Origin: Escherichia coli
GTDB lineage: Bacteria > Pseudomonadota > Gammaproteobacteria > Enterobacterales > Enterobacteriaceae
Assembly: GCF_044647545.1 (NCBI RefSeq)
Contig: NZ_CP172818.1
Direction: 5' to 3' (one strand)
Length of the DNA stretch: 64,000 nucleotides
The position numbers were made by a program, and so were the translations under genes. Positions 1,971-55,072 of this stretch are shown here, one piece after another (the stretch's first letter is position 1; every line of letters starts with the position of its first letter). A model generated the notes under the pieces. That model ran no database searches, was not told the origin of the DNA, and saw only the letters and a list, made by a program, of their open reading frames with translations.

Positions 1971-3446
1971 ATGATTCGGTCAACACGTATTTCCCTGGGG
2001 TTATTCTTTAATTATTTTTTATCGTCAACGAAAATTGATCCTGGTCAAAACTATATATCTCTGCCATCAATAAAATCCAGCACTCACATTGCTCTCCTTT
2101 TTATGGCTTCTATGGGTACACAAAAATTAAAAGCTCAAGGCTTTTTTATTTTCAGCTTATTGCTGACGTTAATTTTATTTTGCATTACTACCTTATATAA
2201 CGAAAACACAAATGTAAAACTCATCCCACAGATGAATTACCTGATGGTTGTTGTGGCTTTGTTTTTCCTTAACGCCGTCATTTTTCTTTTCATGTTAATG
2301 AAGTATTTCACTAACAAACAAATTTTACCAACACTCATTTTAAGTCTTGCATTTTTAAGTGGCCTTATCTATTTAGTTGAAACCATTGTAATTATCCATA
2401 AACCAATCAACGGCAGTACACTGATCCAGACAAAGTCGAATGATGTTTCTATTTTCTATATTTTCCGCCAACTCAGTTTCATTTGTTTAACCTCGCTGGC
2501 GCTCTTTTGTTATGGGAAAGACAACATCCTTGACAACAATAAGAAAAAAACTGGCATTCTGTTGCTGGCGCTGATTCCTTTTTTAGTTTTTCCCCTTCTG
2601 GCACACAATCTGAGTAGTTATAACGCTGACTATTCTTTGTATGTCGTCGATTACTGTCCGGACAACCATACTGCGACCTGGGGAATCAACTATACAAAAA
2701 TATTGGTTTGTTTGTGGGCATTTTTACTGTTCTTTATTATCATGCGTACACGATTAGCCAGCGAACTATGGCCGTTAATAGCATTATTATGTCTGGCATC
2801 GCTATGCTGCAACTTACTTCTACTGACTCTGGATGAGTATAATTACACCGTCTGGTATATCAGTCGCGGGATTGAAGTTTCCAGTAAACTGTTTGTTGTG
2901 TCTTTTCTGATTTATAACATTTTTCAGGAACTGCAACTCTCCAGCAAACTGGCAGTTCATGATGTACTGACCAATATTTATAATCGGCGCTACTTTTTCA
3001 ACAGCGTAGAGTCATTATTGTCGCGACCTGTTGTTAAGGACTTTTGTGTCATGCTGGTTGATATTAATCAGTTCAAACGCATCAATGCCCAATGGGGACA
3101 TCGTGTGGGTGATAAAGTGCTGGTATCAATTGTCGATATTATCCAGCAAAGCATCCGCCCCGATGATATTTTAGCGCGACTGGAGGGTGAGGTGTTTGGC
3201 TTGCTATTTACCGAACTCAATAGTGCCCAGGCAAAAATCATTGCGGAACGTATGCGTAAAAATGTCGAACTCCTGACCGGCTTTAGTAACAGATATGATG
3301 TTCCTGAACAAATGACCATCAGTATTGGCACGGTTTTTTCAACGGGTGACACGCATAATATCTCGCTTGTCATGACGGAAGCAGATAAAGCCTTACGCGA
3401 AGCGAAAAGCGAGGGGGGCAACAAAGTGATTATTCATCATATTTAA
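1971..3446 (+). CDS. dgcI: Membrane GGDEF-domain protein with degenerate active site (EGEVF)
   Basis: 491-aa ORF with multi-TM N-terminus and C-terminal GGDEF fold; motif reads RLEGEVFGL instead of GGDEF; gene is strongly AT-rich. Confidence 0.85.
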   Translation: MIRSTRISLGLFFNYFLSSTKIDPGQNYISLPSIKSSTHIALLFMASMGTQKLKAQGFFIFSLLLTLILFCITTLYNENTNVKLIPQMNYLMVVVALFFLNAVIFLFMLMKYFTNKQILPTLILSLAFLSGLIYLVETIVIIHKPINGSTLIQTKSNDVSIFYIFRQLSFICLTSLALFCYGKDNILDNNKKKTGILLLALIPFLVFPLLAHNLSSYNADYSLYVVDYCPDNHTATWGINYTKILVCLWAFLLFFIIMRTRLASELWPLIALLCLASLCCNLLLLTLDEYNYTVWYISRGIEVSSKLFVVSFLIYNIFQELQLSSKLAVHDVLTNIYNRRYFFNSVESLLSRPVVKDFCVMLVDINQFKRINAQWGHRVGDKVLVSIVDIIQQSIRPDDILARLEGEVFGLLFTELNSAQAKIIAERMRKNVELLTGFSNRYDVPEQMTISIGTVFSTGDTHNISLVMTEADKALREAKSEGGNKVIIHHI

Positions 3447-3626
3447 GTGCAAAAATATTCAGAGCCATGCTTTTTGCGTGGCTTTTGCATACAATTTATT
3501 ACTATTACCCCTAAATTTCCCCTCCCCAGCGGCGCAGAGATGAGTATAATTAGCGCCCCTGTGCCAGGCCGCAATCGAACTTTATCTGGTTTTCTCGTTT
3601 CACTAACCGAAGGAGTGCCATTTATC

Positions 3627-5117
3627 ATGAAATTGCACCATAGAATGCTCCGGCATTTTATCGCCGCAAGTGTCATTGTGCTGACATCTTCCTTCCTTAT
3701 TTTTGAACTTGTCGCCAGTGACAGAGCAATGAGTGCCTATCTGCGCTATATCGTGCAGAGAGCAGACTCCTCCTTTCTTTATGATAAGTATCAGAATCAG
3801 AGTATTGCCGCGCATGTGATGCGCGCGCTCGCTGCTGAGCAGTCGGAAGTGTCGCCAGAACAGCGGCGCGCCATCTGCGAGGCTTTTGAGTCTGCCAATA
3901 ATACCCATGGCTTAAACCTGACTGCCCATAAATACCCTGGCTTACGCGGCACACTACAAACCGCATCCACTGACTGCGACACAATTGTGGAAGCTGCTGC
4001 ACTATTACCCGCTTTTGATCAGGCAGTGGAAGGCAACCGCCACCAGGATGATTACGGTTCAGGTCTTGGGATGGCCGAAGAGAAATTTCACTATTATCTC
4101 GATCTCAATGACCGCTATGTCTATTTTTATGAGCCGGTTAATGTTGAGTACTTTGCGATGAATAACTGGTCCTTCCTGCAGTCAGGAAGTATTGGCATCG
4201 ATCGCAAAGATATTGAAAAGGTATTTACCGGGCGTACCGTATTATCGAGCATTTACCAGGATCAGCGTACTAAACAGAACGTGATGAGTTTGCTGACGCC
4301 GGTATATGTCGCAGGGCAGCTAAAAGGGATTGTGCTGCTGGATATTAACAAAAACAATCTGCGGAATATCTTTTACACTCATGACCGCCCTCTCCTCTGG
4401 CGTTTTCTCAATGTCACGCTAACTGATACAGATTCGGGGCGCGACATTATCATCAACCAGAGCGAAGATAATCTGTTCCAGTATGTCAGTTACGTCCATG
4501 ACTTACCGGGCGGCATTCGTGTCTCGTTATCCATTGATATTCTTTACTTTATCACGTCTTCGTGGAAAAGCGTTCTGTTCTGGATTTTGACGGCGTTAAT
4601 TTTGCTGAATATGGTGCGGATGCACTTCCGTTTATACCAAAATGTGTCGCGAGAAAATATTAGTGATGCGATGACTGGACTCTATAATCGCAAAATTTTA
4701 ACCCCTGAACTGGAGCAGCGGTTGCAGAAGCTGGTGCAATCCGGTTCTTCGGTGATGTTTATTGCAATTGACATGGACAAGTTAAAGCAAATAAATGACA
4801 CCCTTGGTCATCAGGAGGGGGATTTAGCGATTACGTTATTAGCGCAGGCGATTAAACAGTCGATTCGTAAAAGTGATTATGCCATCCGACTCGGTGGCGA
4901 TGAATTCTGCATCATTCTTGTCGATTCGACACCGCAAATTGCAGCACAACTGCCTGAACGTATCGAAAAACGTCTGCAACATATCGCGCCGCAGAAAGAG
5001 ATCGGCTTCTCTTCCGGTATTTACGCGATGAAAGAAAACGATACGTTACATGATGCGTATAAAGCTTCCGATGAGCGTTTATATGTCAATAAGCAGAACA
5101 AAAACAGCCGTTCATGA
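3627..5117 (+). CDS. dgcJ: Membrane diguanylate cyclase (intact GGDEF)
   Basis: ATG at 3627 preceded by AGGAG gives 496 aa; motif RLGGDEFCI present; ORF track start 3447 is an upstream in-frame extension. Confidence 0.85.
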   Translation: MKLHHRMLRHFIAASVIVLTSSFLIFELVASDRAMSAYLRYIVQRADSSFLYDKYQNQSIAAHVMRALAAEQSEVSPEQRRAICEAFESANNTHGLNLTAHKYPGLRGTLQTASTDCDTIVEAAALLPAFDQAVEGNRHQDDYGSGLGMAEEKFHYYLDLNDRYVYFYEPVNVEYFAMNNWSFLQSGSIGIDRKDIEKVFTGRTVLSSIYQDQRTKQNVMSLLTPVYVAGQLKGIVLLDINKNNLRNIFYTHDRPLLWRFLNVTLTDTDSGRDIIINQSEDNLFQYVSYVHDLPGGIRVSLSIDILYFITSSWKSVLFWILTALILLNMVRMHFRLYQNVSRENISDAMTGLYNRKILTPELEQRLQKLVQSGSSVMFIAIDMDKLKQINDTLGHQEGDLAITLLAQAIKQSIRKSDYAIRLGGDEFCIILVDSTPQIAAQLPERIEKRLQHIAPQKEIGFSSGIYAMKENDTLHDAYKASDERLYVNKQNKNSRS

Positions 5118-5159
5118 TAACCTTCTGTAGTTGTTTGCTTGTAATCTCAGGAGCATGAA

Positions 5160-5663
5160 ATGACTGAAATGGCTAAAGGAAGCGTGACGCATCAGCGGTT
5201 AATCGCTTTATTATCGCAAGAAGGTGCTAACTTCCGCGTCGTTACCCATGAAGCGGTAGGTAAATGTGAAGCGGTGTCAGAAATTCGTGGCACCGCTTTA
5301 GGCCAGGGGGCTAAGGCACTGGTATGTAAAGTCAAAGGCAATGGCGTAAATCAACATGTTCTGGCGATCCTCGCGGCCGATCAACAGGCCGATCTGAGCC
5401 AACTTGCCAGCCATATAGGCGGATTACGCGCTTCGTTGGCCAGCCCGGCGGAAGTCGATGAACTCACAGGCTGTGTCTTCGGCGCGATCCCCCCTTTCAG
5501 CTTCCATCCAAAACTCAAACTGGTTGCCGACCCCCTACTCTTCGAACGATTTGATGAAATCGCCTTCAATGCAGGCATGCTGGATAAATCCGTTATTTTG
5601 AAAACCGCGGATTATTTGCGCATTGCGCAACCAGAACTGGTCAATTTCCGCCGCACTGCGTAA
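5160..5663 (+). CDS. yeaK: YbaK/ProX-family aminoacyl-tRNA deacylase YeaK
   Basis: 167-aa ORF with GGAG upstream; conserved position after dgcJ. Confidence 0.85.
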   Translation: MTEMAKGSVTHQRLIALLSQEGANFRVVTHEAVGKCEAVSEIRGTALGQGAKALVCKVKGNGVNQHVLAILAADQQADLSQLASHIGGLRASLASPAEVDELTGCVFGAIPPFSFHPKLKLVADPLLFERFDEIAFNAGMLDKSVILKTADYLRIAQPELVNFRRTA

Positions 5664-5768
5664 CTAGCCTGTCCGTTCGATAAGAAGAACGGACAAAACC
5701 AGCACAACAGCAATGGCAAAAAACGATGACGTGATAATCAGTGTCTCGACGAACATTTGATCGTTCAT
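5664..5768 (-). CDS. yoaI: Small membrane protein YoaI (34 aa)
   Basis: Minus-strand ORF read by hand: [34 protein letters not shown]; below the ORF-track size cut-off. Confidence 0.6.
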
Positions 5769-5937
5769 AGTATGCCCCCGGGAGATAGCTGTTTTCACGT
5801 TATTGTTAACGTGCACAAATGGCAGTTTGATGACAGTTCGCCTGATTTTTTATGCAAAAAACGTAAAGATTTTCTACTTCCTTCCTGCAGCAAGCGTAAA
5901 GTAAGCAGGCTTATTATTCTTTGGCAAGGAAACCACG

Positions 5938-6384
5938 ATGTTTGATGTCACTTTGCTGATCCTGCTCGGGTTAGCTGCGCTGGGCTTTATCAGTCATAAC
6001 ACCACTGTCGCCGTTTCAATTCTGGTGTTAATCATTGTCCGCGTCACACCGTTAAGCACCTTTTTCCCGTGGATTGAAAAACAGGGGCTAAGTATCGGGA
6101 TAATCATTCTGACGATTGGTGTTATGGCTCCCATCGCCAGCGGGACGCTACCGCCCTCAACCCTGATTCACTCGTTTCTGAACTGGAAATCGCTGGTGGC
6201 AATTGCAGTCGGCGTTATTGTCTCCTGGCTGGGAGGGCGCGGCGTGACGTTAATGGGCAGCCAGCCGCAACTGGTCGCCGGGTTGCTGGTGGGCACTGTT
6301 TTAGGCGTGGCGCTGTTTCGCGGCGTACCGGTTGGCCCGCTTATTGCCGCGGGTCTGGTTTCGCTGATTGTGGGGAAACAGTAG
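5938..6384 (+). CDS. yeaL: UPF0756 inner-membrane protein YeaL
   Basis: 148-aa hydrophobic ORF; 3' end overlaps the convergent nimR. Confidence 0.85.
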
Positions 6385-7162
6385 TTAATCCCGCAATATA
6401 TCGGCCTGGCGTTTGCCCCAGGCCTTTCTTAAACATAGTAATAAAGGCCGTTGTTGAATCATACCCCAGCGTATGAGCAACTTTCTGTACAGTATCGCCT
6501 TTCACTAATCCCTGAAGCGCCATAATCAGCTGTAACTGCTGACGCCACTGGCGAAAACTCAACCCCGTCTCTTTCACTATCAGCCGGGCAAGATTGCGTT
6601 CACTCATCGCAAAAAAGCGAGCCCATTGCCCCAATGACCCCCACTCGACGGGCTCTTTCGCCATCATCTCCACCATCGCGCGGATTTTAGGATGAGAAGA
6701 AACGGGTAGGTGCAGCTGTTGTTGTGGCTGCTGAGGGAGTTCATCAAACAGGACCTGAATTAATCTGCGGGTCATCGGCTCAGCACGCTGAGTCGTCGTC
6801 CTGTTTGCCAGGGTTAAAATTAATTCCCGGCATAAGGGCGATATTTTCAATGTGCAACAGGTTGTCGGCATTGTCACTGCGCTGGGTTCGATAAACAGAA
6901 AACAGAGTTCGGCGTTAGCTGTCACTTGATTGCTATGTTCCACCCCTCCCGGTATCCAAACCGCATATTGCGGCGGCACCATCCACAAAGCATTTTCCAC
7001 CGTACAGGTAATTGCACCATGTAGCGCCAGTATCAGCTGTCCTTTGCGGTGCTGATGTACAGGACTGGTTAACTCATCCGTTCCGGCGTGAATACAAAAT
7101 GCGACCGCGGCTTCATGGTGTCGGTCGGGTTCATAGCCATTGAGATTCAACCTGTGCATCAT
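6341..7162 (-). CDS. nimR: AraC-family transcriptional regulator NimR (YeaM)
   Basis: 273-aa ORF with cupin-like N-terminus and AraC-type HTH C-terminus; divergent from the MFS gene nimT. Confidence 0.85.
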
Positions 7163-19766: not shown

Positions 19767-19795
19767 TCAAAAAAAACGCCGGATTAACCGGCGTC
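19767..19795 (-). terminator. Rho-independent terminator after fadD
   Basis: Minus strand reads ACGCCGGTTAATCCGGCGT followed by T8. Confidence 0.6.
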
Positions 19796-19813
19796 TGACG
19801 ACTGACTTAACGC

Positions 19814-21499
19814 TCAGGCTTTATTGTCCACTTTGCCGCGCGCTTCGTCACGTAATTCTCGTCGCAAAATTTTTCCGACGTTAGATTTCGGTAACTCATC
19901 ACGAAACTCCACCAGCTTCGGTACTTTGTAGCCCGTGAGCTGACGGCGGCAAAAGGTCACCAGTGACTCTTCGGTAAGCGATGGATCTTTTTTCACTACG
20001 AAGATTTTCACCGCTTCACCACTGGAGCCGGAAGGTACGCCAACAGCCGCGACTTCCTGTACGCCAGGATGCTGCATGACGACATCTTCAATCTCGTTGG
20101 GATAGACGTTAAAACCGGAAACCAGAATCATGTCTTTTTTACGATCGACAATGCGCAGGAATCCTTCTTCATCCATCACCGCGATGTCGCCGGTGTGTAA
20201 CCAGCCATTTTTGATGATTTCATCGGTAGCATCCGGACGCTGCCAGTAACCCAGCATCACCTGCGGTCCTTTGACACAAAGCTCACCTGGTTGACCCGGT
20301 GGTACTTCGTTGTCGTCGTCATCCACCAGTTTGGCTTCCGTCGACGGCACCGGCAAACCGATGCTACCACTATGATAATCAATATCATACGGGTTAACGC
20401 TGACCAGCGGCGCACACTCGGTCAGGCCATAACCTTCCAGCAGATACTGTCCAGTCAGTTTCACCCAACGTTCTGCCACCACTTGCTGAACAGGCATCCC
20501 TCCGCCTGCGGAAAGATGCAGACTGGAGAAATCCAGCTGCTGGAACTCTTTATTGTTCAGCAACGCATTGAACAAGGTGTTAACGCCAGTGATAGCGGTA
20601 AACGGATATTTCGCTAACTCTTTTACCAACCCTGGAATATCGCGCGGGTTAGTGATAAGCAGGTTCTGCCCACCCAGTTCGATAAACAGCAGGCAGTTAA
20701 TGGTCAGGGCAAAAATGTGATACAGCGGCAGCGCCGTCACCACCAGCTCTTTGCCCGGATGCAACAGCGGACCATAGGTCGCGTTAACCTGTTCCAGGTT
20801 CGCCAGCATATTGCGGTGAGTCAGCATCGCGCCTTTCGCCACACCAGTGGTACCGCCGGTGTATTGCAGGAAAGCTAAATCTTCCGGCACCAGTTCGGGT
20901 TTGACGTACTGCATCCGGTAGCCGCTGTGCAGGGCGCTACGAAATGAAATGGCATCTGGCAGATGGTATTTCGGCACCAGACGCTTGATGTATTTAACAA
21001 CGAAATTGACTACCGTGCCTTTTGCCGTAGATAGCTGATCGCCCATACGGGTCAGAATTACGTGCTGAACGGCGGTTTTATCAACCACTTTTTCCAGAGT
21101 GTGGGCAAAGTTAGACACGATAACAATCGCCGATGCGCCGCTATCGTTAAGCTGATGCTCAAGTTCACGCGGGGTATACAACGGGTTAACGTTTACGACA
21201 ATCATCCCGGCACGCAAAATGCCAAACAGCGCCACCGGATATTGCAATAAATTAGGCATCATCAACGCAACGCGATCGCCTTTCTTCAGTCCCAACCCTT
21301 GTTGCAAATAAGCGGCAAACGCGCGACTGCGTTCTTCCAGTTTGCGGAAGGTCATCACCTCCCCCATATTCACAAACGCGGGTTGATCGGCGTAGCGCGC
21401 GACCGACTGCTCAAACATATCTACCAGAGATTGATAACGGTCAGGGTTGATCTCCGTCGGAACGTCCGCGGGATAACGGTTAAGCCAAACCTTCTTCAA
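19814..21499 (-). CDS. fadD: Long-chain fatty acyl-CoA synthetase
   Basis: AMP-binding signature ([15 protein letters not shown]); 561 aa from a non-ATG start (LKKVWLNRY...); ORF track Met at 21565 is upstream of it. Confidence 0.9.
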
Positions 21500-38796: not shown

Positions 38797-38889
38797 GACA
38801 ACTCCGGCAGGATACTAAAGGCCGCAAGTGTAACGCGAATCACGCGGCGGGCAAATATCCGAACGCCTGGAGCGAAGATAAAGCAAAGT

Positions 38890-38916
38890 AAAAAGCCTCG
38901 CATTCGGCGAGGCTTT
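38890..38916 (-). terminator. Rho-independent terminator after cspC
   Basis: Minus strand reads GCCTCGCCGAATGCGAGGC followed by a T run. Confidence 0.6.
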
Positions 38917-38961
38917 ATAGCGAGATTGAAGCGTATTCACACTTCAGATCAGTGGATTCGA

Positions 38962-39171
38962 TCAGATAGCTGTTACGTTAACAGCTGCCGGACCTTTCTG
39001 GCCGTCCTGAATTTCGAACTCAACGTTCTGACCTTCAGCCAGAGTTTTGAAGCCATTACCCTGGATAGCGGAGAAGTGTACGAACACGTCTTTGCTGCCA
39101 TCAGCCGGAGTAATGAAGCCAAAACCTTTAGACTCGTTGAACCACTTAACCTGACCTTTAATCTTTGCCAT
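38962..39171 (-). CDS. cspC: Cold-shock-domain protein CspC
   Basis: 69-aa [23 protein letters not shown]... with RNP1/RNP2 motifs. Confidence 0.95.
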
Positions 39172-39183
39172 TTGAAAAATTCC

Positions 39184-39327
39184 TTAGATTGTTTTCTTCG
39201 CCCGCAGGCATAACATAGATAAAACTGACACATTACTGCATGAGGCACCAATATAAGGCTCGGCAGAGAAGCGGTATTCAACGTCAACGTGTTTACTCAG
39301 GACTTCTTTACTGAAAATGCCACACAT
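39184..39327 (-). CDS. yobF: Small protein YobF (47 aa), co-oriented just upstream of cspC
   Basis: Hand-translated: [47 protein letters not shown]. Confidence 0.65.
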
Positions 39328-39996
39328 AAACAGAACTGTACCTCGTTTAACCCGAAATCTGTTATCACATACAACGTTAATTATGGCAAGCCATTTTTAA
39401 ACATGTCTCGATCAGACGCACAAATCTCGATACGTCTTCCACTTTTTTTGCACACTTATGCAACGGAATACGCGCCGATATATCATTGTGCTTAACCTTG
39501 CCAGTTCAGGCAGATACTTAAACTGACGTATTTTCTAACATAGTTCAATAAGTTCAGTTGTTCCAGGCCAGTGGGAGAAGTTATTACATAGTGCGTGCAA
39601 TATCACATTTTCTGCTATGCAATGAATAAAAAGTTATATCACTTTTTCTCATAAAACAGTCAGTTAACGGCCACCAATTACCCCAAAGAGAAGTCAATCC
39701 CCAATGGTATTGTAAATTTAAAATAAGAAAAATTGATGAATGCGCAAAAAAATCAAGAGAGAAACGTTTCGCTAATAAATAATACCATGCTTAATCACAA
39801 ATCCGATGTAAACATCCTAATAAATTAATGGGCTAAATATCTTTTTCTGATATCCCGTTACGCAAATAAATAATATGATAATTATTTGAAGTCAGACCAG
39901 AGTTTTAATTTGAAGCAGTTGCACCATGACAGTGCGTATAATCAGGATGAATTGAGTAACCCTTCAACGACGGGGTTACTCAAGATTGAGGAAGGA

Positions 39997-47366: not shown

Positions 47367-47864
47367 TTATCCTGCGACGCTCGCAAAGAATTTTTTGTAA
47401 TCCGTCGTTGCAAGCACCTTTTCAAGCTGTGCCACAAGCTGACGTAAGCCTTGCTCGTCCTCGTCTGTAAAGCGACCGAAGACGGTACTGTCGATGTCGA
47501 GAACACCAATAATCTGATTTTTCACCACCAGTGGCAGAACAATTTCAGAATTACTCGCCGCATCACAGGCAATATGCCCGTCAAACGCGTGAACATCCTC
47601 GATACGCTGCACTTGATTGCGGGCAACCGCAGTGCCGCATACGCCGCGCCCAACGGGTATCCGGACACAGGCAATTTTGCCCTGAAATGGTCCGAGCACC
47701 AGTGTATCGTCGTCAAGCAAATAAAAACCTGCCCAGTTTACGTCAGTGAGACGCTCATATAACAACGCACTGGTGTTCGCAAGCGTTGCCAGAAAACTGG
47801 TTTCTCCCGCCATCAGCGCGTTAAAGTCGCGATTTAAATCCGCGTAAAATTCTGCTTTGTTCAT
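47367..47864 (-). CDS. msrC: GAF-domain free methionine-(R)-sulfoxide reductase MsrC (YebR)
   Basis: 165 aa from the Met at 47864 (MNKAEFYADL...). Confidence 0.85.
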   Translation of the reverse strand: MNKAEFYADLNRDFNALMAGETSFLATLANTSALLYERLTDVNWAGFYLLDDDTLVLGPFQGKIACVRIPVGRGVCGTAVARNQVQRIEDVHAFDGHIACDAASNSEIVLPLVVKNQIIGVLDIDSTVFGRFTDEDEQGLRQLVAQLEKVLATTDYKKFFASVAG

Positions 47865-47993: not shown

Positions 47994-49277
47994 ATGGCTC
48001 TTAACACACCACAAATTACGCCGACAAAAAAGATAACAGTGAGGGCTATCGGTGAGGAACTGCCGCATGGTGATTACCAACGTTGCCCGCAATGTGACAT
48101 GCTGTTTAGCCTGCCCGAGATAAATTCTCATCAAAGTGCCTATTGTCCGCGCTGTCAGGCAAAAATTCGTGACGGGCGCGACTGGTCGCTAACGCGCCTG
48201 GCGGCAATGGCGTTCGCTATGCTGTTGTTGATGCCGTTTGCCTGGGGCGAACCGCTGTTGCATATCTGGCTGTTAGGCATTCGTATTGACGCCAACGTTA
48301 TGCAAGGCATCTGGCAAATGACCAAACAGGGCGATGCGATAACGGGGTCGATGGTCTTTTTTTGCGTTATTGGTGCCCCCCTCATTCTGGTGACCTCCAT
48401 AGCTTATTTATGGTTTGGTAACCGACTGGGAATGAATTTACGTCCGGTACTACTGATGCTTGAACGACTTAAAGAGTGGGTAATGCTGGATATCTACCTG
48501 GTCGGCATTGGCGTTGCTTCTATAAAGGTACAGGATTATGCCCATATCCAGGCGGGTGTCGGCTTGTTCTCTTTTGTGGCGTTGGTGATTTTAACGACGG
48601 TGACGTTGTCACATCTTAATGTCGAAGAACTGTGGGAGCGATTTTATCCGCAGCGCCCCGCTACGCGAAGGGACGAGAAACTCCGTGTCTGTCTTGGGTG
48701 TCATTTTACCGGCTATCCTGATCAGCGTGGTCGCTGCCCGCGTTGCCATATCCCGCTACGCCTGCGTCGCCGTCATAGTCTGCAAAAATGCTGGGCGGCG
48801 CTGTTAGCGTCAATCGTTTTGTTGTTACCTGCCAACCTGTTGCCTATCTCTATCATTTATCTGAATGGTGGTCGGCAGGAAGATACGATTCTTTCCGGAA
48901 TTATGTCGCTGGCAAGTAGCAACATTGCGGTTGCGGGAATCGTGTTTATCGCCAGTATTCTGGTACCGTTTACTAAAGTGATCGTCATGTTCACTTTACT
49001 GTTGAGTATTCATTTTAAATGCCAGCAAGGTTTACGCACACGCATTCTGTTACTGCGGATGGTGACCTGGATTGGTCGCTGGTCGATGCTCGACCTGTTT
49101 GTCATATCTTTAACCATGTCGCTGATTAATCGCGATCAGATCCTCGCTTTTACTATGGGACCGGCTGCGTTTTATTTCGGCGCAGCGGTAATTTTGACTA
49201 TTCTTGCTGTGGAATGGCTGGACAGCCGCTTACTTTGGGATGCACATGAGTCAGGAAACGCCCGCTTCGACGACTGA
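47994..49277 (+). CDS. letA: PqiA-family inner-membrane protein LetA (YebS)
   Basis: 427-aa ORF with two zinc-ribbon-like CxxC pairs and TM segments. Confidence 0.85.
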
Positions 49278-51879
49278 AGCGCAGATTAAAAATAAACGCC
49301 GTATCTCACCTTTCTGGCTGCTGCCGTTCATCGCGCTAATGATTGCCGGTTGGCTGATTTGGGACAGTTATCAGGACCGGGGTAATACCGTCACCATCGA
49401 CTTTATGTCGGCGGATGGTATTGTCCCGGGCCGCACCCCTGTTCGTTATCAGGGCGTTGAAGTCGGAACTGTGCAGGATATCAGCCTCAGCGACGATCTT
49501 CGTAAGATTGAAGTCAAGGTCAGCATCAAGTCTGATATGAAAGATGCGCTGCGCGAAGAGACACAGTTCTGGCTGGTGACGCCAAAGGCCTCGCTGGCAG
49601 GTGTCTCCGGGCTGGACGCCCTCGTCGGTGGTAATTATATCGGCATGATGCCGGGTAAAGGTAAAGAGCAGGATCACTTTGTCGCACTCGACACCCAACC
49701 GAAATATCGGCTGGACAATGGCGATCTGATGATCCACCTGCAAGCCCCCGATCTCGGTTCACTGAGCAGTGGTTCATTGGTCTATTTCCGCAAGATCCCG
49801 GTGGGTAAAGTCTACGACTATGCCATCAATCCCAACAAGCAAGGCGTGGTGATTGATGTCCTGATCGAGCGGCGTTTTACCGATCTGGTGAAAAAAGGTA
49901 GCCGTTTCTGGAACGTTTCCGGCGTTGATGCCAACGTCAGTATCAGTGGCGCGAAGGTGAAACTGGAAAGTCTGGCGGCACTGGTTAACGGTGCGATTGC
50001 CTTCGATTCACCTGAAGAGTCGAAACCTGCCGAGGCGGAAGATACCTTTGGTCTGTATGAAGACCTGGCCCATAGCCAACGTGGCGTAATAATAAAACTG
50101 GAACTGCCAGGCGGTGCCGGATTAACCGCCGACTCGACGCCGTTAATGTATCAGGGGCTGGAAGTCGGACAGCTAACTAAACTGGATTTAAATCCTGGTG
50201 GTAAAGTCACTGGGGAAATGACCGTTGATCCCAGCGTCGTTACCCTGCTTCGTGAAAATACCCGCATCGAATTACGCAACCCGAAATTATCCCTTAGCGA
50301 TGCCAATCTCAGCGCCCTGCTGACTGGCAAAACCTTCGAGTTGGTGCCCGGCGATGGCGAGCCACGCAAAGAGTTCGTTGTTGTGCCAGGCGAAAAAGCA
50401 CTGCTGCATGAACCTGATGTTCTGACACTGACCCTGACAGCACCGGAAAGTTACGGTATTGATGCTGGTCAGCCGCTCATTCTTCACGGCGTGCAGGTAG
50501 GCCAGGTTATTGATCGTAAACTCACCAGCAAAGGCGTCACCTTTACCGTCGCCATCGAGCCTCAGCATCGAGAACTGGTAAAAGGCGATAGCAAATTTGT
50601 CGTCAACAGCCGTGTCGACGTGAAGGTGGGGCTGGATGGCGTTGAGTTTCTCGGAGCCAGCGCCTCAGAATGGATTAATGGCGGGATACGTATTCTGCCG
50701 GGCGATAAAGGCGAGATGAAAGCCAGCTATCCACTGTATGCCAATCTGGAAAAAGCGCTGGAGAACAGCCTTAGCGATTTACCCACCACAACCGTGAGTT
50801 TGAGTGCAGAGACGCTGCCGGATGTGCAGGCAGGATCGGTAGTGCTGTACCGTAAATTTGAAGTTGGTGAAGTTATTACCGTGCGTCCGCGAGCTAACGC
50901 GTTTGATATCGATCTGCATATTAAGCCGGAGTATCGCAACCTTCTGACCAGCAATAGCGTGTTCTGGGCAGAAGGCGGGGCGAAAGTTCAGCTGAATGGT
51001 AGTGGCCTGACCGTACAGGCATCCCCGCTCTCCAGAGCATTAAAGGGAGCCATTAGCTTCGATAACCTCAGCGGTGCCAGCGCCAGTCAGCGTAAAGGCG
51101 ACAAACGTATTCTGTATGCTTCCGAAACAGCGGCCCGTGCGGTTGGCGGGCAGATTACGCTTCACGCTTTCGATGCCGGAAAACTGGCGGTCGGGATGCC
51201 AATTCGCTATCTCGGTATTGATATCGGGCAAATCCAGACGCTGGATCTGATTACCGCGCGCAATGAAGTGCAGGCAAAAGCGGTGCTCTATCCGGAGTAT
51301 GTCCAGACCTTCGCCCGCGGCGGTACGCGCTTCTCGGTGGTCACACCGCAAATTTCAGCCGCGGGCGTTGAGCATCTTGATACCATCCTCCAGCCGTATA
51401 TCAACGTCGAACCAGGTCGGGGTAATCCTCACCGCGACTTTGAGTTGCAAGAAGCCACCATTACTGATTCGCGTTACCTGGATGGCTTAAGCATTATTGT
51501 TGAAGCGCCTGAAGCCGGTTCGTTAGGTATTGGTACGCCTGTGCTGTTCCGTGGTCTGGAAGTCGGTACGGTTACCGGAATGACGCTGGGGACATTGTCT
51601 GATCGCGTGATGATTGCGATGCGCATCAGTAAACGCTATCAACACCTGGTGCGCAACAATTCCGTCTTCTGGTTGGCATCAGGTTACAGTCTGGACTTTG
51701 GTCTGACGGGCGGCGTAGTGAAAACCGGCACCTTTAACCAATTTATCCGTGGCGGCATCGCCTTCGCCACGCCTCCGGGTACGCCACTGGCACCGAAAGC
51801 CCAGGAAGGCAAGCACTTCCTGTTGCAGGAAAGTGAACCGAAAGAGTGGCGTGAATGGGGAACAGCGCTTCCCAAATAA
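49246..51879 (+). CDS. letB: Multi-MCE-domain periplasm-spanning lipid transport protein LetB (YebT)
   Basis: 877 aa from the Met at 49246; N-terminal TM helix followed by repeated MCE-like modules; overlaps letA by 32 bp. Confidence 0.85.
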
Positions 51880-51952: not shown

Positions 51953-53398
51953 ATGCTCGTGGCCCAACACACCGTTTATTTCCCGGACGCCTTTCTGACA
52001 CAAATGCGCGAAGCAATGCCTTCGACGCTCTCATTTGATGATTTTCTTGCCGCCTGTCAGCGCCCGTTGCGCCGCAGTATTCGCGTTAATACGCTGAAAA
52101 TCTCCGTTGCTGATTTCCTGCAATTAACCGCCCCTTATGGCTGGACGCTTACGCCAATTCCGTGGTGTGAAGAAGGTTTCTGGATTGAACGCGACAATGA
52201 AGATGCATTGCCGTTGGGTAGTACCGCCGAGCATTTAAGTGGCCTGTTTTATATTCAGGAAGCCAGTTCAATGTTGCCCGTCGCCGCCTTGTTTGCTGAC
52301 GGTAATGCACCACAGCGGGTGATGGATGTCGCTGCCGCGCCCGGCTCCAAAACGACGCAAATTGCCGCGCGGATGAATAACGAAGGGGCGATCCTTGCCA
52401 ATGAGTTTTCCGCCAGTCGGGTAAAAGTGTTACATGCCAATATCAGCCGCTGTGGCATCAGTAATGTTGCGCTCACACATTTTGATGGCCGCGTGTTTGG
52501 TGCGGCATTGCCAGAAATGTTCGATGCCATTTTGCTGGACGCTCCCTGCTCCGGCGAAGGCGTGGTGCGTAAAGATCCCGATGCGCTAAAAAACTGGTCA
52601 CCAGAAAGCAATCAGGAAATCGCAGCGACCCAACGGGAACTGATCGACAGCGCCTTTCATGCATTACGCCCTGGCGGTACGCTGGTTTACTCGACCTGTA
52701 CCTTAAACAGGGAAGAAAACGAAGCCGTTTGCCTGTGGCTGAAAGAGACTTACCCCGACGCAGTAGAGTTTTTACCGCTTGGCGATCTCTTCCCTGGTGC
52801 AAATAAGGCGCTGACCGAAGAAGGCTTTTTGCATGTTTTCCCACAAATTTACGACTGCGAAGGCTTCTTCGTTGCTCGTCTGCGTAAAACTCAGGCGATC
52901 CCCGTCTTACCCGCCCCAAAATACAAAGTGGGCAATTTCCCGTTTAGCCCGGTGAAAGATCGCGAAGCCAGTCAAATTCGTCAGGCGGCTGCAAGTGTTG
53001 GCTTAAACTGGGATGGAAACCTGCGACTCTGGCAACGCGACAAAGAACTGTGGTTGTTCCCGGTAGGCATTGAAGCCCTGATCGGTAAAGTCCGATTTTC
53101 TCGGTTGGGGATTAAACTTGCCGAAACGCATAACAAAGGTTATCGCTGGCAGCATGAAGCGGTTATTGCCCTTGCCTCCCCCGACAATGTGAACGCTTTT
53201 GAACTGACACCGCAGGAAGCGGAAGAGTGGTATCGCGGGCGCGATGTTTACCCGCAAGCCGCGCCAGTAGCGGATGATGTATTGGTTACTTTCCAGCATC
53301 AGCCGATTGGTTTAGCCAAACGAATTGGTTCGCGACTGAAAAACAGCTACCCGCGTGAACTGGTGCGAGACGGGAAACTTTTTACCGGTAACGCCTGA
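51953..53398 (+). CDS. rsmF: 16S rRNA m5C1407 methyltransferase RsmF
   Basis: About 480-aa ORF with NOL1/NOP2/Sun-type SAM motifs ([16 protein letters not shown]). Confidence 0.9.
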
Positions 53399-54799: not shown

Positions 54800-55072
54800 A
54801 TAAAGTCAGCGAAGGGAATGCTTCTGGCTTTTAACAGATAAAAAGAGACCGAACACGATTCCTGTATTCGGTCCAGGGAAATGGCTCTTGGGAGAGAGCC
54901 GTGCGCTAAAAGTTGGCATTAATGCAGGCTTAGTTGCCTTGCCCTTTAAGAATAGATGACGACGCCAGGTTTTCCAGTTTGCGTGCAAAATGGTCAATAA
55001 AAAGCGCGGTGGTCATCAGCTTAAATGTTAAAAACCGCCCGTTCTGGTGAAAGAACTGAGGCGGTTTTTTTA
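54800..55072 (+). ncRNA. ryeA: sRNA RyeA (SraC), antisense to SdsR (5' end not determined)
   Basis: Plus-strand terminator at about 55032-55072 (CCGCC...GGCGG then T7) downstream of the SdsR locus, consistent with the known cis-antisense arrangement. Confidence 0.35.
54840..54942 (-). ncRNA. sdsR: sRNA SdsR (RyeB)
   Basis: Minus strand reads GCAAGGCAACTAAGCCTGCATTAATGCCAACTTTTAGCGCACGGCTCTCTCCCAAGAGCCATTTCCCTGGACCGAATACAGGAATCGTGTTCGGTCTCTTTTT, matching the remembered SdsR sequence including terminator hairpin and U-tail; boundaries within a few nt. Confidence 0.65.

Follow-up and report, generated by a model that had tools for sequence, protein, structure and literature searches.

The genes letA (yebS) and letB (yebT) of Escherichia coli belong to one operon, and their coding sequences have 32 nt in common. 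The overlap, which the first-pass annotation had pointed out from the DNA letters, is real, yet it is already annotated and published, having been stated outright by Santarossa et al. (Nature 2026; PMC13017536); the finding is thus correct and ordinary, letA/letB being one more long overlap of 3n+2 nt which opens no new question. The sole mildly new item of this study is a zone of about 50 nt, just before the letB start, where letA is constrained at synonymous sites, and which, as the alignments suggest, is probably the ribosome-binding region of letB embedded within letA.

The letA/letB junction and its conservation

The window, that is, the whole stretch of 64,000 nucleotides of E. coli chromosome that was analysed (contig NZ_CP172818.1), carries letA directly upstream of letB on the same strand, and hence the letAB operon arrangement, with the following features.

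47994..49277, plus strand: letA (yebS) coding sequence, 427 aa, PqiA-family polytopic inner-membrane protein (open reading frame, profiles, RefSeq)
49246..51879, plus strand: letB (yebT) coding sequence, 877 aa, seven MCE domains and an N-terminal transmembrane (TM) helix (translation, profile, RefSeq)
49275..49277, plus strand: letA stop codon TGA (sequence; TGA in 77 of 81 sequences)
49246..49248, plus strand: letB start codon ATG, invariant in the 81 sequences
49246..49277, plus strand: shared segment of 32 nt, coding LetA residues 418-427 and LetB residues 1-11
49287..49289, plus strand: back-up TAA in the letA frame, used in four species without the TGA

Read directly, the 3' end of letA in its own frame is ...TGG GAT GCA CAT GAG TCA GGA AAC GCC CGC TTC GAC GAC TGA. 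The letB frame is +1 relative to it and reads ATG CAC ATG AGT CAG GAA... there, with ATG codons at 49240 and 49246. Both ends proposed by the first-pass annotation, the letA stop at 49277 and the letB start at 49246, are therefore found in the sequence, the latter as an in-frame ATG which RefSeq also uses (FDAARGOS_497 and K-12) and which the comparative data favour over 49204. Strain FDAARGOS_497, with 100% identity to the window, has these ends too (yebS 3195-4478 and yebT 4447-7080 in locus coordinates), and in the annotation of K-12 MG1655 letA ends at 1917541 and letB starts at 1917510, which again gives 32 nt. At the K-12 pair (b1833-b1834), the start and stop context and the neighbours (prc-proQ-msrC / letA-letB-rsmF) are as in the window's strain, the differences from the window being at strain level only. 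A junction query of 901 nt found matches in 5424 of 5426 complete E. coli genomes, 95-99% identical in most of them and 100% in several, including FDAARGOS_497 and an ST648 strain. In one E. coli genome a second copy of the junction lies on a plasmid record (5424 chromosomal places and 1 plasmid).

The identities given earlier to the two products, a PqiA-like membrane protein and a multi-MCE tunnel protein, agree with the profiles. LetA matches PF04403 (PqiA; E = 1e-81) in 2 stretches corresponding to two PqiA modules, and scores 703.7 bits with TIGR00155 against a cut-off of 260, while LetB matches PF02470 (MlaD) in 7 stretches, its seven MCE domains. Over residues 1-85, LetB differs by one substitution from chain B of PDB 9n8w (877 aa, beginning MSQETPAS); residue 35, in the TM helix (window 49348-49350), is Gly here and Ser in the K-12/PDB sequence.

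Conservation of the overlap in homologous loci had been suggested as a check. We took the locus from 80 species of Enterobacteriaceae with LetA identities of 77-97%, which together with the window give 81 sequences whose junction aligned without gaps. The scan of genome contigs covered Enterobacteriaceae at this range of identity, and wider diversity was sampled by seven single exact-protein look-ups with LetA identities of 37-51%, one of which (L088) is uninformative, having no co-directional MCE gene. The overlap is kept in 81 of the 81 sequences and in 5 of the 6 distant pairs, and ATG 49246 is invariant among the 81; on this comparative evidence the overlap is not a product of chance or an annotation artefact. 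Its length is 32 nt in 77 sequences and 44 nt in 4, namely three Citrobacter and one Superficieibacter (L014, L027, L031 and L063), in which the TGA has become GGA, so that letA ends only at the TAA 12 nt further on and LetA has 431 aa, a length also seen among YebS proteins. The called overlaps in the distant pairs (n = 6) are 56, 38, 8, 11 and 53 nt, the remaining pair having a gap of 25 nt, and every overlap among the relatives (8-56 nt) is of the form 3n+2. In these distant relatives, down to 37% identity, prc-proQ is found in L082 and L084, rsmF in L085, and both in L087.

The shared bases code only the disordered C-terminal tail of LetA and N-terminal tail of LetB, and double coding is tolerated for this reason; in cryo-EM, LetA residues 419-427 and LetB residues 1-13 are unresolved or disordered in density. 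Both tails diverge completely in distant relatives and are nearly frozen in both frames within Enterobacteriaceae. The latter is expected from mutual locking, the wobble positions of letA being the second positions of letB.

Two irregularities were met among the loci. In four species the letB open reading frame from the conserved ATG is only 88, 539, 726 or 873 codons long, for which frameshifts, indels or assembly errors could be the cause; in two of these loci, L062 and L069, the alignment with E. coli goes out of register past about 49430 and about 49550, respectively. A contig titled 'Chryseobacterium sp. 18061' (L065, CACSKA010000003.1) holds an enterobacterial letAB locus with 79% LetA identity and a typical junction, and the assembly is probably contaminated or mislabelled.

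Synonymous constraint in letA upstream of letB

Per-codon synonymous diversity in letA was computed over 77 sequences, leaving out two loci that are too short upstream and two with indels in letB. It is 0.51 over 47994-49193, drops about fourfold to 0.127 over 49194-49244, the roughly 50 nt upstream of the letB ATG, and is 0.046 over the overlap codons 49245-49274 (Mann-Whitney tests: upstream zone, p = 4e-9; overlap, p = 1e-7). The 15 lowest windows of 12 codons in letA all fall in 49194-49274; those in the upstream zone score 0.125-0.171, against a minimum of 0.31 for the 386 windows that lie wholly upstream of 49185. The constraint stops about 4 nt past the letA stop, and the only freely varying wobble sites in the upstream zone are 49208, 49211, 49223 and 49241. 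Within E. coli, the 101-nt junction is at least 99% identical in 5423 of 5424 genomes, while only 75 of the 5424 reach at least 99% over 901 nt. Two features of this zone bear on initiation.

49194..49245, plus strand: zone of suppressed synonymous diversity, presumed initiation region of letB, including the U-rich CUUACUUUGGGA tract
49236..49241, plus strand: codons TGG GAT of LetA Trp415-Asp416, holding the only Shine-Dalgarno-like (SD-like) element, GGGA at 49237-49240, which is found in 81 of 81 sequences

Double coding from 49246 accounts for the last 32 nt and does not account for the preceding 50 nt or so. The account that we favour, and in whose outline we have moderate confidence, is that the start of letB is anchored to a motif of LetA and that initiation there is mostly fresh. 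The ribosome-binding region of letB would then lie wholly inside letA, with the U-rich tract in front and the weak SD sequence GGGA coming from the conserved Trp-Asp codons that close the last TM helix of LetA, of which the Trp codon is unchangeable; such an embedded region would freeze the synonymous sites of letA from about -50 nt on. With the start anchored to the Trp-Asp motif, the tail of LetA past the motif would set the length of the overlap, which comes to 11, 32, 38, 44 or 56 nt in relatives, always in a 3n+2 phase, from which single mutations cannot lead to a shortened ATGA or TGATG junction. The overlap itself would be an evolutionary by-product of an anchored start and a variable LetA tail. 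As each LetA requires six LetB, ribosomes that initiate independently at this embedded site probably make most of the LetB, while those translating letA would keep the site unfolded and may add a minor share by backward reinitiation.

The distant relatives are consistent with the anchoring: the letB ATG of L082, L084 and L087 follows the UGGGA or UGGAA of the conserved Trp-Asp(Lys) codons of LetA at a distance of five bases, just like that of the window. The rare Leu codons TTA and CTT of the U-rich CUUACUUUGG tract also persist in relatives of 44-51% identity, even in L084. The constraint extends to -50, beyond a typical 30S footprint, which the reading as an embedded ribosome-binding site does not explain in detail.

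For the engineering of letAB, it follows that mutating the last 10 codons of letA also alters LetB residues 1-11, and that mutations in the roughly 50 nt before the overlap may change the expression of LetB. Hence the two open reading frames had been refactored so as not to overlap in the published deep mutational scan.

Coupled or independent initiation of letB

The overlap had been taken by the first-pass annotation to imply translational coupling, whereas coupling over 32 nt is plausible and not implied. In native E. coli gene pairs, measured termination-reinitiation drops off steeply with distance and is efficient only between about -8 and +6 nt, and long overlaps, which are rarer, are said to be uncoupled as a rule (PMC10666635); a length under 30 bp is given for more than 80% of overlaps (PMC12548453). 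The spacing of -32 nt between the letA stop and the letB start falls outside this range. Our literature search found no data on the dependence of letB translation on letA translation.

The short-overlap pairs coupled by termination-reinitiation (ATGA, TGATG or -8) are, like letAB, co-directional and encode subunits of one complex from one operon, and the 3n+2 phase of letAB is that of the -8 class (PMC10666635). Unlike in them, the letAB overlap of 32 nt lies outside -8 to +6 nt and the subunit ratio is 1:6, not 1:1. In the coat-lysis pairs of the RNA phages fr and MS2 (-38 nt) the downstream start precedes the upstream stop by tens of nucleotides, as in letAB, and backward scanning by ribosomes has its known precedent in these pairs (PMC12548453). 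The phage lysis start, however, is silent without coat termination and lies in a defined structure, whereas no such structure is evident at the letB junction. The E. coli paralogue pqiA-pqiB-pqiC likewise has a PqiA-family gene with a co-directional multi-MCE gene directly after it, and pqiA shares with letA the C-terminal '..RLxWD' motif just before the junction. In contrast to letA/letB, pqiA and pqiB do not overlap and have a gap of +4 nt with a strong GAGGAG SD in the tail of pqiA, while pqiB-pqiC shows the classic overlap of 4 nt.

RNA structure at the junction was examined through an RNAalifold consensus, which yields two candidate hairpins.

49198..49217, plus strand: candidate hairpin CUAUUC/GAAUGG with a variable loop, stems invariant
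49264..49280, plus strand: candidate hairpin GCUUCG-N5-UGAAGC, whose 3' arm holds the letA stop

The second hairpin shows one-sided changes only (GU to AU in 11 sequences and UA to UG in 3), and its loop is the sole variable part of the overlap. No covariation was found in the consensus of the junction (covariation term -0.35, stems invariant), and the folding energy there is not more stable than that of shuffled sequences (z-scores -0.03 and +0.35). The region of the letB start has an unpaired probability of 0.59 against a local mean of 0.46. A long-range helix in the 201-nt minimum free energy fold, pairing 49206-49230 with letB codons at about 49310-49335, was rejected, those codons having a normal synonymous diversity of 0.35-0.72. 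No sigma-70-like promoter site, such as an internal letB promoter would have, was found near the junction, and terminator-like hairpins number 5 against a shuffled expectation of 2.4 +/- 1.6, about 1.6 sd above it. Rfam gave no match in 49100-49400. All four Rfam matches of the window lie elsewhere: the antisense sRNA pair SraC/RyeA (plus strand, 175 bits) and SdsR/RyeB (minus strand, 114 bits) at 54836-54980, a cspA-type thermoregulator 5' UTR at 38887-39347 (minus strand, 137.6 bits), and the sRNA sroD at 19770-19855 (minus strand, 115 bits).

Strict coupling would mean that LetB comes mainly from ribosomes that end at the TGA 49275-77 and move 32 nt back, or that letB is translated only when translation of letA melts an inhibitory structure. 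We regard this as unlikely while still giving it some weight. In its favour, the products of the overlapping genes are parts of one complex, the coat/lysis pair of phage fr is on record as reinitiating backwards over -38 nt (PMC12548453), the small candidate hairpin spans the letA stop, and the SD of letB is weak, which leaves room for coupling; for the same reason (-4.0 kcal/mol) a high rate of independent initiation is not obviously expected. Stoichiometry speaks the other way. The LetAB complex consists of six LetB and one LetA (PMC13017536), and if the two proteins are synthesized in proportion, which we assume, reinitiation alone cannot supply LetB, as it gives at most one LetB per LetA. 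Strict coupling is also at odds with the collapse of reinitiation outside about -8 to +6 nt and the typically uncoupled state of long overlaps (PMC10666635), with the relatively unpaired start region lacking any significant or covarying structure over it (z about 0), and with the +4 gap and strong GAGGAG SD of the paralogous pair. Moreover, a refactored operon with non-overlapping letA and letB served as the wild-type backbone and reference in functional selections (PMC13017536).

Another reading of the constraint is that the frozen segment of about 85 nt, 49194-49281, is a dedicated cis-regulatory RNA element inside letA, beyond an ordinary ribosome-binding site, which sets the LetB:LetA ratio, for instance as a standby-site hairpin with the U-rich tract, as a target of an sRNA or RNA chaperone, or as a programmed pause. 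If true, it would set a 6:1 output of LetB to LetA from one mRNA despite the weak SD. Synonymous diversity four- to tenfold under the gene mean over more than the length of a ribosome-binding site would suit such an element, as would the rare Leu codons TTA and CTT kept at 44-51% identity and the fall of the still-variable sites in predicted loops of the alifold model, although that model is partly circular, since variable columns favour unpaired status. Thermodynamic signal and covariation are both absent, however, no Rfam family matches, and the GGCUGGACAGCC hairpin is missing in L084 and L087, so that we hold a dedicated element to be quite improbable and prefer the embedded ribosome-binding region with mostly fresh initiation.

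Position of the letB start

Upstream of 49246 the letB frame holds a TTG at 49204, which the first-pass annotation had offered as an alternative start, and an ATG at 49240, two codons before 49246 (ATGCACATG), which it did not mention. The TTG is indeed in frame and would add 14 residues to LetB as had been said, but the codon had been called an ATG, and both the sequence and the list of open reading frames give TTG.

49195..49197, plus strand: TGA closing the letB frame upstream (sequence; a stop in 81 of 81)
49204..49206, plus strand: TTG, putative alternative start, judged not used (lost in 3 of 81, SD spacing, distant relatives)
49240..49242, plus strand: second in-frame ATG, judged not used (lost in 19 of 81, GGGA abuts it without a spacer)

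While ATG 49246 is present in all 81 sequences, ATG 49240 is present in 62, with ACG in 17 (by the letA-synonymous change GAT to GAC) and ATA in 2, and TTG 49204 in 78, with TTT in 3 Citrobacter. All 81 have a TGA or TAA that closes the letB frame upstream. Only 49246 has an SD-like element at a workable spacing: the GGGA/anti-SD duplex is weak (-4.0 kcal/mol) and 4-5 nt separate it from this ATG, whereas the best anti-SD duplexes for 49204 and 49240 are 13-16 nt away and GGGA directly abuts 49240. Of the 200 ATG, GTG and TTG triplets that lie from the start of letA to the stop of letB, 28.5% have an upstream duplex that equals or exceeds that of letB in strength. The TTG is judged a weak start, being a weak start codon without an SD at usable spacing. 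In two distant relatives the homologous ATG is the sole canonical start in the open frame; the letB frame opens only 12 nt before it in L082 (51% LetA identity) and 42 nt before it in L084 (44%). From these comparisons ATG 49246 is the start of LetB, placed within the 11 final codons of letA (stop included), and TTG 49204 and ATG 49240 were rejected on conservation, SD spacing and distant relatives. In the published record, the TRAINSPOTTER N-terminomics supplements yielded no entry for yebT, letB or P76272, and our literature search found no paper joining yebS/yebT with ribosome profiling.

If LetB or an isoform of it nevertheless started at TTG 49204 (+14 aa) or ATG 49240 (+2 aa), the overlap would measure 74 or 38 nt, and the constraint upstream would be a result of double coding. 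The opening of the letB frame at 49198, near the onset of the constraint, and the retention of the TTG in 78 and of ATG 49240 in 62 of the 81 sequences fit this possibility, which we consider very improbable all the same. Three species lack the TTG and 19 lack ATG 49240, with the adjoining conservation unaffected, neither codon has an SD at usable spacing, and upstream of the homologous ATG of L082 and L084 the frame is either closed or devoid of a start. Of the four free wobble sites of letA, three lie between the TTG and ATG 49240 and one within the latter codon; in the extension, variation at these sites would mean L>Q, W>L/S, T>I and M>T. Coding from the TTG is unlikely as the cause of the constraint because of these changes and because the TTG is missing in three species that keep the conservation.

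That the overlap is an annotation artefact and LetB begins downstream of the letA stop, which had been named as a refuting case, is next to impossible: no supporting evidence was found for such a start, ATG 49246 is invariant, and the first canonical in-frame start past 49277 is ATG 49339 (Met32), inside the TM helix of LetB (residues 14-45), so that starting there would remove the membrane anchor and would also drop the cytoplasmic anchor KNKRR.

Start ambiguities like that of letB are seen in two neighbouring genes: the open reading frame of rsmF opens with ATG 51953 where RefSeq starts at 51959, and that of msrC on the minus strand reaches ATG 47918 where RefSeq starts at 47864.
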